32,000 nt of DNA from Candidatus Heimdallarchaeota archaeon. GTDB taxonomy: Archaea; Asgardarchaeota; Heimdallarchaeia; Heimdallarchaeales; Heimdallarchaeaceae. Positions 26,653 to 30,157 of the stretch are shown in pieces. Position numbers and translations under genes: made by a program. Position 1 is the stretch's first letter, and every line of letters starts with the position of its first letter. The notes beneath the pieces were generated by a model, which made no database searches, was not told where the DNA came from, and saw nothing but the letters and a program-made list of their open reading frames with translations. Where the stretch lies: positions 84,486 through 116,485 of the forward strand of contig DAOVER010000001.1 of assembly GCA_030668875.1 (NCBI GenBank), read 5' to 3'.

Positions 26653-26940
26653 TTAAGCAATAATGGGCTGAGTTGTTTTTGTTTTAGTTATTAGATTTTC
26701 TAAAGATGTGTCCATTTCAGGATTTATGCCTATTAAAGCTGATCTCATGTCCTCAAAATTTGCTCTATTAACTAAAACTGTTCTGTCTAATAGTTGTCTA
26801 ACAGTGTAACGAATAGCTCGAGGCTTCTTTTCATTCAAGCTTTCAATAATCTCTTTTTGAGTTAGTGCTCCTTTGTCTTTTAGCAATTCAATCACTTCGA
26901 GTGATCCTTTTGGTAGTCTTTCTCTTTGCATTTTCTTCAC
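26653..26940 (-). CDS. Small winged-helix (MarR-like) DNA-binding protein
   Basis: LPKGSLEVIELLKDKGALTQKEIIESL..KPRAIRYTVRQLL...NFEDMR. Start may be ATG 26931. Confidence 0.75.
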   Translation of the reverse strand: MKKMQRERLPKGSLEVIELLKDKGALTQKEIIESLNEKKPRAIRYTVRQLLDRTVLVNRANFEDMRSALIGINPEMDTSLENLITKTKTTQPIIA

Positions 26941-27027: not shown

Positions 27028-27072
27028 CTGTTAAACTGCAAAATTCGCAAAAAGGAGAGGAAAAAGTTTATT

Positions 27073-29991
27073 TTATTGCTTAGGGTACACCTTGGAAAAC
27101 CTGATCTTTAAAACTGGGACAAGAACAATGGTAACGAAGATGAATAAAATAATTCCTGTGGTTATTTGTTGAATTAATGGGAGTTGTTCCCACAATAAAA
27201 CATTACAGAAAATCTCATTTCGACCATCCGTTATAGTATGGTTTTCAAGTCCTAATGGCACATAAATCGTATGCATGCCATATTGTTTAAGAGTTATAGT
27301 TGTCTCATATTTGAGATTCTCTCCATTAAACAGCAAAATAATATGACTAAATGAGCTGTCTGGATGTAGTATGGTTGCATATACTCGATCATCAGGTAAA
27401 AAGACTACCGACTCATCTTTATCTTTGATATCGATTCTTATCCTAAACTGTTCTCGTATTAGAACCTCACTTGTGTCTGACTGTACATTTATTGAAGGTC
27501 GATGTGTATTTATTAACCAGCTAAATGTGTCATTGACCAGCTGAAGGTTGTTAGAATCTTGTGCTAGCACGTGTCTATAACTTTTGTCCAAACCCACGCG
27601 AAGAGGATTAAGCTCCATAGAATCTACAATTAGTCCTAAATCTGTAAATGGAAATCCTGAACCAAACATTATCACTTTTCCTAGTCCAATGCTTGTAGAT
27701 AATGCTGCATTGAATAATATTGCTTCCCCAGCAATCTCTGCACTAAAGGTGGCAACTACTTTGTTCTCAAGATTTTCATCTGAAGTAAACCTTAGAGGCC
27801 ATCCCCAAAATAGAAATGAATCAGTTGAAATGAAATCAATGTCCATTTGTATATTACCATAATATGGGACATAATCAATTGGCACGGTATTTCCTACACT
27901 TGCGTTAAATAATTCTAAAATCTGATTGCAAGCATAATAGTTGCTTGATAGTATTGGATCATCTTCAACATTATCAACCTCGATATATCTATGGCTATTG
28001 ATTAGAAACAGCAAAGATCCTCCTGATGAAATAAAGTCATATATTTTGTTTAATTCATCAATAGTATAATTTAATTCAGGGTCGGAAATCACTAATATCT
28101 CGGTAGAATTTAGATTAAGTGACCCTTCATTCTGATATGAAACTTGATATCCTCTGTCCTTTAGAATTCTCGATGTCAAACTATGAGCTCCAAAGGGTGT
28201 GGATGCATCAAACCATTTGTTATCTGTTGAATTCTCGTGAGAGATATCAAATAAAACATTACCTCCATGGTATCTGGTTTGAATTTGAATATCCAATTTA
28301 CTAGTTACATCTTCATCATTAGAAAATTCAATTGATGAGATGATGTTAGTAATTCTTTGTGCTAAAGGTAAACTAATGTTAAATGAAATATGGTTCCACC
28401 CAGCTGTAATCTCGAAATAATCTGCTATTTGTATATTGCTGGGATATCTAAGGACATTAGCGTATATCGTCTGATCACTTGATGAGATAAGTTTAATCTT
28501 AAATTCTGTTGTCATGCCTTGCACACATTCATAAAAATAAATGTTTTCAGGTGATACTCTTCTTGGATTAATTGAAAAAACATCTGATCCTTGATTATCA
28601 ATTATATATTGATATGCTTCATATGGATTAATGATTCCATTGCCTTGAGCTATTATAGGCGCATAGATGTCATTAGCGGTTTCGAAGAGTGCAGTTTCAT
28701 AAACATGCAAACTTGAATCAGGAAATGCTTCCATTAATAGTGCAATAACTCCTGCAACGATTGGGGCTGAGACTGATGTACCAGAAACATATCTTATACC
28801 ACCATTAGAAGCATCGCTTCCGCCAATAGAATTACCAGGGGCAATAATATCTACGCCTACAGAGAAATTCATATTTAGACCTCTAGAAGAATACACTGCT
28901 AGATTGTTCAAATCACTTGAAGCCCCAACAGATATTACATAATCCCACAAGGCTGGTGCTCCAACTGAGTTTCCAGATGGTCCATAATTACCTGCAGAAG
29001 CAACTACAGGTATTCCTCTTCTCCCAGCTTCATACATTAATTCCTCAATTGGATCTCCAATTGAAGCGAAAGTTACAGAAGTTAGGCTTGCTGAGATAAT
29101 ATCAACATTTTTACCTATAGCGTATGAAAAACCATCAATTAACCAAGTATCTTCACCAAATCCATTCTTATCTAGCACTTTAATATTAACAATACTCGCA
29201 TCAGGTGCGATACCATAATTATTGGTTTGAACAACACCTTGTCCTGAGGTATACTTACCATTGCCTGCGAGTACAGAAACGATATGTGTTCCATGACCGC
29301 TCAAATCATTTATATCTTCAGACATATTCGCTGAAACCCAAGCTGTTGCAATCTTATCTTCATCCTCGTAATGAAGAAGTGACTGTAGTGAGTGTGCAAT
29401 AGACTGGTTCACCCCACTGTCTAAAACTGCAACTGTAATACCATACCCAAAATGGCCCTCTTCATGAATTTTATCAATTTCAAGTGCTTGTCTGATTTCT
29501 GAAAGTTCTGTCTGACCTGATAGACCAATGTCAATATTTTGAGGAACTGAATATGAGTTTGTTCCGATAGGATAGACGTATTTTATCCTGAAGTCATCGA
29601 AATTCAGATTTGAAATTTGATTTGAATTGTATATGATTGTTATTGCTGGAATAACTTTGTTGACCTCTTCGATAAATAAACCATTTCTCGTTGCATATTC
29701 TTGAAAACTATTCCTTTCTTCAAAACTAAAAAATGAAATGAATGCTCTATTGTTGAAATCCATTAATTTTATTTTAACAGATTTAGAACTCATAGGTTCC
29801 TTCCATCTTTCTTTTAGCATATTTGTTGCTTTACCTTTTTCTAAGTTCGATTTTAGTAAGTCTGACAAATCTTCAAAATAACTAGGCATATCTTGCGTGT
29901 TGTCAGTATTTTGTGCTAGTACAGAGTTTATAGTACTAAAAGGGAATAGAAACAAAATAAAAATTGTAAGGAATAATGGTTTTTTTTCCAT
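27073..29991 (-). CDS. Membrane-anchored S8 subtilisin-like serine protease with Site-1 protease-like architecture (prodomain, S8, beta domain, GIFT-like domain, TM)
   Basis: Signal peptide. Triad VAVLDSG / GHGTH / SGTSVSAP with oxyanion SAGNYGP. VLFDISHE..LKDRGYQV..ILVISDPE..YTIDEL..GGSLL domain. C-terminal TM. Confidence 0.88.
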   Translation of the reverse strand: MEKKPLFLTIFILFLFPFSTINSVLAQNTDNTQDMPSYFEDLSDLLKSNLEKGKATNMLKERWKEPMSSKSVKIKLMDFNNRAFISFFSFEERNSFQEYATRNGLFIEEVNKVIPAITIIYNSNQISNLNFDDFRIKYVYPIGTNSYSVPQNIDIGLSGQTELSEIRQALEIDKIHEEGHFGYGITVAVLDSGVNQSIAHSLQSLLHYEDEDKIATAWVSANMSEDINDLSGHGTHIVSVLAGNGKYTSGQGVVQTNNYGIAPDASIVNIKVLDKNGFGEDTWLIDGFSYAIGKNVDIISASLTSVTFASIGDPIEELMYEAGRRGIPVVASAGNYGPSGNSVGAPALWDYVISVGASSDLNNLAVYSSRGLNMNFSVGVDIIAPGNSIGGSDASNGGIRYVSGTSVSAPIVAGVIALLMEAFPDSSLHVYETALFETANDIYAPIIAQGNGIINPYEAYQYIIDNQGSDVFSINPRRVSPENIYFYECVQGMTTEFKIKLISSSDQTIYANVLRYPSNIQIADYFEITAGWNHISFNISLPLAQRITNIISSIEFSNDEDVTSKLDIQIQTRYHGGNVLFDISHENSTDNKWFDASTPFGAHSLTSRILKDRGYQVSYQNEGSLNLNSTEILVISDPELNYTIDELNKIYDFISSGGSLLFLINSHRYIEVDNVEDDPILSSNYYACNQILELFNASVGNTVPIDYVPYYGNIQMDIDFISTDSFLFWGWPLRFTSDENLENKVVATFSAEIAGEAILFNAALSTSIGLGKVIMFGSGFPFTDLGLIVDSMELNPLRVGLDKSYRHVLAQDSNNLQLVNDTFSWLINTHRPSINVQSDTSEVLIREQFRIRIDIKDKDESVVFLPDDRVYATILHPDSSFSHIILLFNGENLKYETTITLKQYGMHTIYVPLGLENHTITDGRNEIFCNVLLWEQLPLIQQITTGIILFIFVTIVLVPVLKIRFSKVYPKQ

Positions 29992-30157
29992 ACATTAGAA
30001 ATAAGCTTATCGCTTTTAGATTTTTCTCTAGTATTATAGAGTAAATGTCTATTATTTGTCGGATGAATTACAATCCAGATAACAAATTTCTTAATTGTCT
30101 TTCTAATGGAAACTCTTATATTTCAAAAATATCGATGGCTTTCAAGGTGAAATAACA

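Follow-up and report, generated by a model that had tools for sequence, protein, structure and literature searches.

A membrane-anchored subtilase of Heimdallarchaeaceae with the body plan of eukaryotic site-1 protease: a candidate eukaryotic-signature protein

The SREBP and ATF6 pathways are started by the site-1 protease (S1P, MBTPS1) of eukaryotes. Here we analyse 32,000 nucleotides from Candidatus Heimdallarchaeota archaeon (GenBank assembly GCA_030668875.1, contig DAOVER010000001.1, positions 84,486 to 116,485), a stretch called the window throughout, in which one open reading frame (ORF) specifies a protease with the domain order of S1P. In the published structure, pro-domains, a subdomain of peptidase S8, a 'P-like' sandwich which is non-canonical, and a GIFT subdomain comprising residues 617-998 make up the S1P ectodomain. 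Among the proprotein convertases only S1P possesses a GIFT subdomain, which braces the active-site region of this highly specific enzyme (PMC11231238). The GIFT proteins WBP1/OST48 have homologues which were already reported in Heimdallarchaeia (PMC10307638). We found no published work which traces the origin of S1P to any prokaryote or links S1P with Asgard archaea. From the comparisons presented below we consider it probable, at roughly 0.55, that S1P descends from an Asgard-type protein in which S8, sandwich, GIFT and transmembrane (TM) parts were already fused, and that its catalytic core is of archaeal origin and similar to that of the Thermococcus kodakarensis subtilase Tk-SP.

The protease gene is a single open frame on the minus strand at positions 27073-29991 and encodes 972 amino acids (aa). 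Judged by its sequence, the product is a membrane-anchored subtilase which is apparently active and has an S1P-like ectodomain. The order of the parts is signal peptide, I9-like prodomain, S8 domain, beta-sandwich, GIFT domain, immunoglobulin (Ig)-like domain, TM helix and short basic tail. The original prediction, made from the letters alone, had listed a signal peptide, a prodomain, an S8 domain, a beta-rich domain, a further domain and a C-terminal TM segment at this position; sequence, Pfam and AlphaFold2 (AF2) models confirm it. The AF2 models were built with the family alignment. The whole-chain model has a mean predicted local confidence (pLDDT) of 77 and a predicted TM-score (pTM) of 0.71; the C-terminal half modelled alone reaches a pLDDT of 90.8. 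The features of the gene are:

27073..29991, minus strand: whole ORF, 972 aa, membrane-anchored subtilase (sequence, Pfam, AF2 model, Foldseek)
29914..29991, minus strand: putative signal peptide, about aa 1-26, with the hydrophobic core LFLTIFILFLFPF and the end ...VLAQ (sequence; hydropathy peak aa 6-24; presumed cleavage site)
29518..29844, minus strand: prodomain, about aa 50-158, with a beta-alpha-beta-beta-alpha-beta fold like I9 and the ProN part of Tk-SP (modelled secondary structure, profile)
28597..29514, minus strand: S8 catalytic domain, about aa 160-465, with D191, H233, oxyanion N335 and S406 (PF00082, invariant residues, VIA alignment)
28276..28584, minus strand: beta-sandwich, about aa 470-572, placed where S1P has its 'P-like' subdomain and Tk-SP its jelly roll (models, structural alignment)
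27502..28269, minus strand: GIFT domain (alpha/beta), about aa 575-830 (sub-threshold Pfam matches; family profile against the PDB)
27202..27495, minus strand: Ig-like (filamin-type) beta-sandwich stalk, about aa 833-930 (model; profile matches to filamin and gelation-factor repeats)
27073..27180, minus strand: TM helix, about aa 938-961, basic cytoplasmic tail and stop codon (sequence, hydropathy, model)

Over the whole chain, the best match in the PDB is human S1P. Foldseek, one of the checks which the original prediction had proposed, places human S1P (8uw8_A) first for the full model (E 4.4e-34, 752 columns), followed by Tk-SP (1.9e-24). VIA-align superposes model residues 160-830 on residues 190-874 of the 8uw8_A chain (Z 32.8, root mean square deviation (rmsd) 4.7 Å, 577 residues). 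In Foldseek and in VIA the alignment to S1P passes through the beta-sandwich at aa 470-572. Among the 50 VIA entries shown, 8uw8_A is the only one aligned past the sandwich into the GIFT domain; the others end within S8, Tk-SP within the sandwich. The shape search of the ESM Atlas also returned a eukaryotic S1P cluster first (TM-scores 0.61/0.59, 691 residues, rmsd 5.0, query 78-967). Behind it, with TM-scores of 0.37-0.43, come clusters of prokaryotic S8 proteins; no GIFT domain is among the Pfam families listed for them. In the language-model feature search a Thorarchaeota cluster (0.96) is followed by nine eukaryotic S1P clusters (0.94), and bacterial S8 clusters score 0.86-0.87. When the C-terminal half alone is submitted to Foldseek, the matches are S1P (3.3e-14, superposed at about 7 Å), OST48 (1.5e-13, about 15 Å) and IFT52 (8e-8).

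A profile of the S8 tail, sandwich and GIFT domain finds S1P first in the PDB (95.7 bits, E 2.6e-26) and covers S1P residues 389-857 in one collinear stretch. A full-length family profile, built from 43 Asgard sequences, is likewise collinear with S1P in one stretch, profile positions 165-783 corresponding to S1P 192-855. The HMMER alignment to 8UW8/8UWC shows that the S1P motifs SGTSVASP, AYQILN...SLSPSYI, GGMPTVVNVTILN, VLWDQYHN, LRSMGYFV, LLMVDSEEEYFPEEI and GLSL match archaeal segments in this order; thus the S1P motifs which the original prediction had cited are correct. It had further regarded SGTSV, in place of SGTSM, as an S1P-like trait. This holds within the Heimdallarchaeaceae, where 26 of 29 sequences carry SGTSV, and fails in the wider family, where SGTSM is present in 22 of 43 sequences. 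SGTSV is therefore a trait of the Heimdallarchaeaceae and not a family-wide signature of S1P.

The catalytic domain belongs to peptidase family S8. Pfam identifies Peptidase_S8 (PF00082) at aa 183-441 with an E-value of 5.6e-46 and 157.6 bits, the gathering cut-off being 21.8. VIA alignments of the S8 domain have Z-scores of 33-34 to subtilisins and Tk-SP, which establishes the subtilisin fold. The triad appears in subtilisin order, and none of D191, H233, the oxyanion N335 and S406 varies among 29 close or among 43 distant homologues; hence the enzyme looks active. For the prodomain, the family profile aligns with residues 22-120 of Tk-SP ProN, and VIA alignments to pro-subtilisins begin at aa 77-79. 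In the model a linker of low confidence at aa 150-158 is the likely zone of autocleavage. The motif R167-x-x-L170 was considered as a processing site and was discarded because it lies inside the N-terminal helices of the mature S8 domain. At the other end of the chain hydropathy shows a strong TM segment at aa 943-961, after which the protein closes with the tail KIRFSKVYPKQ. The protease shows no enrichment of N-glycosylation sequons (10 observed, 10.8 expected).

The GIFT domain, which has an alpha/beta fold of the GATase-like kind, was detected in several ways. Pfam yields sub-threshold GIFT-type matches at aa 597-676 (ABC_transp_aux, DUF4350, IFT52_GIFT). A broad Asgard profile of the C-terminal part reaches known GIFT proteins in the PDB: IFT52 (E 5e-20 over 217 positions, 75 bits), OST48 (E 1.2e-6, profile 133-445, i.e., 313 positions running through the GIFT and Ig-like domains), and S1P (E 4e-6, residues 617-854, 29 bits). 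Only such broader Asgard profiles reach S1P; a C-terminal profile restricted to Heimdallarchaeaceae did not find it in the PDB at E <= 10. By profile comparison, then, the GIFT domain of the family is detectably homologous to that of S1P.

How widespread is this architecture? When 1.84 billion representatives were searched exhaustively by hidden Markov model (HMM), the C-terminal profile retrieved about 60 clusters with S8, sandwich and GIFT; none of the 150 listed matches scanned was a true S1P. All placeable homologues are labelled Asgard, i.e., Heimdall-, Thor-, Hel-, Loki- or Odinarchaeota or 'Promethearchaeota'. The named close homologues are metagenome-assembled genomes (MAGs) of Heimdallarchaeota or Heimdallarchaeaceae, AB_125 included. 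A locus search with the C-terminal alignment of the Heimdallarchaeaceae gave 25 loci, 21 of them titled Heimdallarchaeota MAGs. When 399 genomes of the phylum were searched with the C-terminal profile, it was found in all 29 genomes of the family to which the window belongs and in most other families; the stronger matches sit in ORFs of 800-1480 aa. Divergence is considerable: homologues from sister families of the same order are only about 27% identical to the protease of the window. A C-terminal TM segment is present in all family members.

No protein with the full architecture was found among bacteria or non-Asgard archaea in the HMM representative search or in the shape and language-model searches of the Atlas. 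As far as searched, the architecture is confined to Asgard archaea and eukaryotes; the broad spread through bacteria and other archaea which the original prediction had named as evidence against itself did not appear.

Many family members of about 1000-1300 aa, from Thorarchaeota and others (P0057, P0070, P0077, P0145, P0222-P0231), have a zinc ribbon, or two, on the cytoplasmic side behind the TM segment. A module which possibly binds nucleic acids or proteins would then face the cell interior in a protease of the surface.

Different pictures emerge when the eukaryotic GIFT models are run over Asgard genomes. The S1P-specific GIFT model PF23090 (MBTPS1_4th) has matches in 26 of 150 Asgard genomes and in none of 14 control genomes. 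Of these 26 matches, 21 are located in ORFs with S8, sandwich and GIFT, one in a fragment at a contig edge, and four in multi-GIFT proteins lacking S8. Scores are low, 16-27 bits at a cut-off of 27, and a few attain the cut-off only by summing neighbouring segments. The IFT52 GIFT model PF23355 has matches in 59 of 61 genomes, and its best match is mostly a separate ORF of 300-545 aa and not the S8-fused domain. The two distributions of best matches indicate that these models prefer different Asgard paralogues, the S1P model preferring the protease-fused one. In the genome of the window the best IFT52_GIFT matches are stand-alone genes (G000:C40:42255-42575 in a 462-aa ORF, 35 bits; G000:C88:33244-33465 in a 680-aa ORF, 25 bits). 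One of the two may correspond to the paralogue, WBP1/OST48-like or IFT52-like, which has been reported for Heimdallarchaeia. The OST48_N model (PF03345) is not listed for the protease, and its best match in this genome is another ORF with 16.1 bits, the cut-off being 36.

Several observations weigh against a specific relationship with S1P. The full-length profile scores Tk-SP at 377 bits, subtilisin BPN' at 269 and S1P at 261 even with the GIFT part counted; by score the S8 domain thus appears closer to Tk-SP and the subtilisins and is not specifically S1P-like. Single-sequence phmmer places S1P 15th, with a match confined to the S8 domain. A word-indexed search with family member P0049, which shares RAYQILN words with human S1P, had no eukaryotic S1P among the best 120 matches. 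PF23090 does not match the protease of the window at E <= 1, nor anything in its genome at E <= 0.01. By profile score the family GIFT domain is closer to IFT52 than to S1P, and in Foldseek OST48 fits the C-terminal half about as well as S1P does. A sandwich-only profile matches neither S1P nor Tk-SP in the PDB; PF23094 (MBTPS1_3rd, the P-like domain) produced only chance-level matches in unrelated ORFs of the 150 Asgard genomes. Finally, the Ig-like domain ahead of the TM helix has no match in S1P.

Could the fused protein have been assembled twice? A Tk-SP-like archaeal subtilase would have gained a GIFT-Ig-TM module of the OST48/WBP1 type in Asgard archaea, eukaryotic S1P would have joined S8 and GIFT separately, and the likeness would reflect shared building blocks. 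Prodomain and S8 reach far higher scores against Tk-SP than against S1P, and in Tk-SP a sandwich already follows S8 (VIA alignment 70-563). In the C-terminal half, the GIFT and Ig-like domains align collinearly with OST48 (E 1.2e-6; Foldseek 1.5e-13), the reported homologues of which in Heimdallarchaeia have been mentioned, and bacterial non-protease proteins with sandwich, GIFT and Ig are present in the Atlas (row 4, TM-score 0.61). The missing sequence match between the sandwiches is compatible with two assemblies as well. Yet it would be difficult to arrive twice at an identical domain order together with a GIFT domain packed on S8 over 577-691 residues; the S1P GIFT model favours the S8-fused over the stand-alone paralogues, and OST48 differs in domain orientation as its superposition at about 15 Å demonstrates. 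We regard separate assembly as a serious, though second-ranking, possibility. A transfer of the S1P gene from an early eukaryote into the Asgard family would also account for an architecture common only to these two groups. However, nearly every Asgard family searched has members of the protease family, their divergence is deep (about 27% identity within one order), the enzyme which catalytic domain and prodomain resemble most is archaeal, and the S1P-specific Pfam models barely detect the family. Such a transfer is highly improbable.

Thus, the claim of the original prediction that this is a prokaryotic relative of S1P is partly supported. Architecture, three-dimensional arrangement and GIFT homology are on its side; the S8 scores, the sandwich without sequence match and the extra Ig-like domain are not. 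Given this mixed support, the reading as a possible eukaryotic-signature protein stands as a candidate. The body plan of S8, beta-sandwich, GIFT and TM is common to the Asgard family and S1P most likely because S1P descends from the archaeal fused protein.

What might the archaeal enzyme do? It is a type I membrane protein which would be exported by the Sec route and the folding of which would be aided by the I9-like prodomain; the prodomain is probably removed by the protease itself. The mature enzyme would be an active serine protease of the subtilisin type on the outer face of the cell membrane. According to the model, beta-sandwich and GIFT pack against the catalytic domain as in S1P, and the Ig-like stalk with its single TM helix would keep the enzyme near the membrane. 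The targets of its limited proteolysis would then be surface or membrane proteins, cut in exposed segments which lie close to the membrane.

Another function can be envisaged. Pyrolysin and enzymes of the Tk-SP type are thought to digest environmental proteins for peptide uptake. The archaeal protease may similarly be a degradative, nutritional enzyme of the cell surface and not a specific processing or 'site-1' enzyme. Tk-SP, the closest characterised relative of the catalytic domain, lacks the GIFT, Ig-like and TM parts; the protease gene is solitary among unrelated informational genes, with a TATA-like box and T-rich terminator-like tracts of its own, and no membrane-tethered regulator adjoins it. 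On the other hand, the gene is single-copy, strictly conserved across the whole phylum and equipped with a fixed membrane anchor, the active-site region is braced by GIFT in the manner of S1P, a highly specific enzyme (PMC11231238), and a rhomboid protease is linked across the order. A nutritional role is in our view the less likely reading, but a serious one. At the other extreme, the Asgard S8-GIFT proteases might be direct ancestors of S1P which already acted as 'site-1' enzymes, i.e., they shed ectodomains and an intramembrane protease, the linked rhomboid or an M50 enzyme of the S2P type, finishes the cleavage. This is quite unlikely, and a link to signalling of the SREBP/ATF6 type is speculation.

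The genome of the window has two M50 (S2P-type) genes (G000:C15:34697-35506, locus L001; G000:C52:20100-20516, locus L002), neither of them near the window; each of the 14 control genomes has M50 too. No regulator with a TM segment was found beside the protease gene. Three proteins were tried in this role and rejected for lack of a TM segment, viz., the 332-aa HTH_3 protein and the 95-aa winged-helix ORF of the window, and a 1478-aa TrmB/coiled-coil neighbour in sister families.

The rhomboid gene offers one lead. In sister families of the order it lies tail-to-tail with the protease gene, or no more than about 1.5 kb away, at 10 of the 12 loci examined, in several genera. For example:

L006:8121-8765, plus strand: rhomboid gene, beside the S8-GIFT gene at L006:8733-11774, minus strand; likewise at L007, L016-L019, L021-L023 and L025

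In these families an M24 peptidase and a giant TrmB/coiled-coil protein usually stand beside the pair of rhomboid and protease. In the Heimdallarchaeaceae the rhomboid gene is located 2-5 kb upstream of the protease gene. The genome of the window has a single rhomboid on contig C67 (G000:C67:26469-26864; L075:8260-8916). Because the end of this contig is syntenic with the sequence which follows the last gene of the window in a related genome, the rhomboid should be about 5 kb from the protease gene. With FtsJ, Trm1 and RNase HII in between, the linkage may be inherited synteny in an informational gene block; as a functional lead it is a hint only.

The giant protein is worth a remark of its own. 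It has about 1475 aa and begins with a TrmB winged helix, behind which come long coiled-coil repeats resembling apolipoprotein; a TM segment is absent (L006:12804-17240 and L007:11909-16333, both minus strand). In one family of the order it is kept beside the M24 peptidase and the S8-GIFT gene. In a non-Heimdall Asgard lineage the S8-GIFT gene adjoins a second large S8 protease of 1088 aa (L010:4066-7332, plus strand). A TldD/PmbA peptidase and a Pyr_redox_2 gene also adjoin it at this locus, an arrangement kept in two genera (L010, L011).

Within the window the gene order is ELP3, an HTH_3 protein, fibrillarin, Nop5, a winged-helix ORF of 95 aa and the protease, followed by the divergent genes of rpS8e, SRP19 and Gar1. 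The position between nop5/flpA and rps8e had been predicted correctly and recurs in three other genera of the Heimdallarchaeaceae. The prediction had not mentioned the intervening 95-aa ORF, and the order is absent from the other Asgard lineages compared, so that its conservation is limited to the family. The remaining elements around the gene are:

26653..26940, minus strand: conserved winged-helix ORF of 95 aa directly downstream of the protease gene, which it always adjoins in Heimdallarchaeaceae
30032..30040, minus strand: putative TATA-like box TCTATAATA, 41-49 nucleotides upstream of the ATG, in the divergent intergenic region of 166 bp shared with rps8e (read from the sequence)
27041..27065, minus strand: T-rich tracts just after the stop codon, possibly an archaeal terminator (read from the sequence)

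A second TATA-like box between the T-rich tracts and the 95-aa ORF reads as the box of that ORF. With its own TATA-like box, the T-rich tracts and this second box downstream, the protease gene is probably monocistronic. The 95-aa ORF is 59-68% identical in the three other genera. It has a weak BlaI/Penicillinase_R match of 16.7 bits, below the cut-off. BlaI-type repressors are under the control of membrane proteases; the BlaI-type likeness is only a hint of a link to the membrane protease.

An Asgard-wide family with the S1P body plan would add a protease of the secretory pathway to the candidate eukaryotic signature proteins. It would supply the sequences with which S8 and GIFT phylogenies could decide the question, and a prokaryotic system in which the control of a subtilase by GIFT is open to study. 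Should the site-1 reading be true, two-step regulated membrane proteolysis predates eukaryotes, and if the rhomboid linkage is functional it provides a way to test sequential membrane proteolysis in the archaeal ancestor. Should the trees show convergence instead, the family would be an example of repeated domain assembly.

The archaeal protease can be positioned among four known systems. IFT52 and the bacterial GIFT proteins of the GldG type share the GIFT domain: IFT52 is the strongest sequence match of the family GIFT (Foldseek TM-score 0.63 by target), but the matched chains are GIFT domains devoid of a protease part. OST48/WBP1 (DDOST), a part of the oligosaccharyltransferase, has a GIFT domain and a membrane-proximal beta-sandwich which are collinear with aa ~600-930 of the protease, just before its TM helix; it likewise has no protease part, and its domains are oriented differently. 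The collinearity with the luminal part of OST48/WBP1 can be followed through GIFT, Ig-like domain, TM helix and short tail (aa ~600-961, window positions 27109-28194). At the level of sequence this suggests a single shared module behind OST48 and the protease-fused form. Tk-SP (3AFG, 9UES) is the best sequence match for prodomain and S8 (32% identity, Z 34.2) and has a beta-sandwich directly after S8, whereas its chains match the archaeal model only through this sandwich (to aa 563-568), with no match to GIFT, Ig-like or TM parts. S1P (8UW8, 8UWC, 9CSD) is only 19-21% identical to the archaeal protease, the prodomain of which resembles the simple I9/Tk-SP propeptide. Yet S1P shares the signal peptide, prodomain, S8, 'P-like' sandwich, GIFT, one C-terminal TM helix and short basic tail in the same order. 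The Asp-His-Ser triad and the oxyanion Asn are intact in the archaeal protein, the HMM alignment is collinear and includes the AYQ-I-L...P..I junction and the GIFT motifs, and in the whole-ectodomain alignments the rigid-body arrangement of the archaeal model, GIFT packed on S8, is that of S1P.

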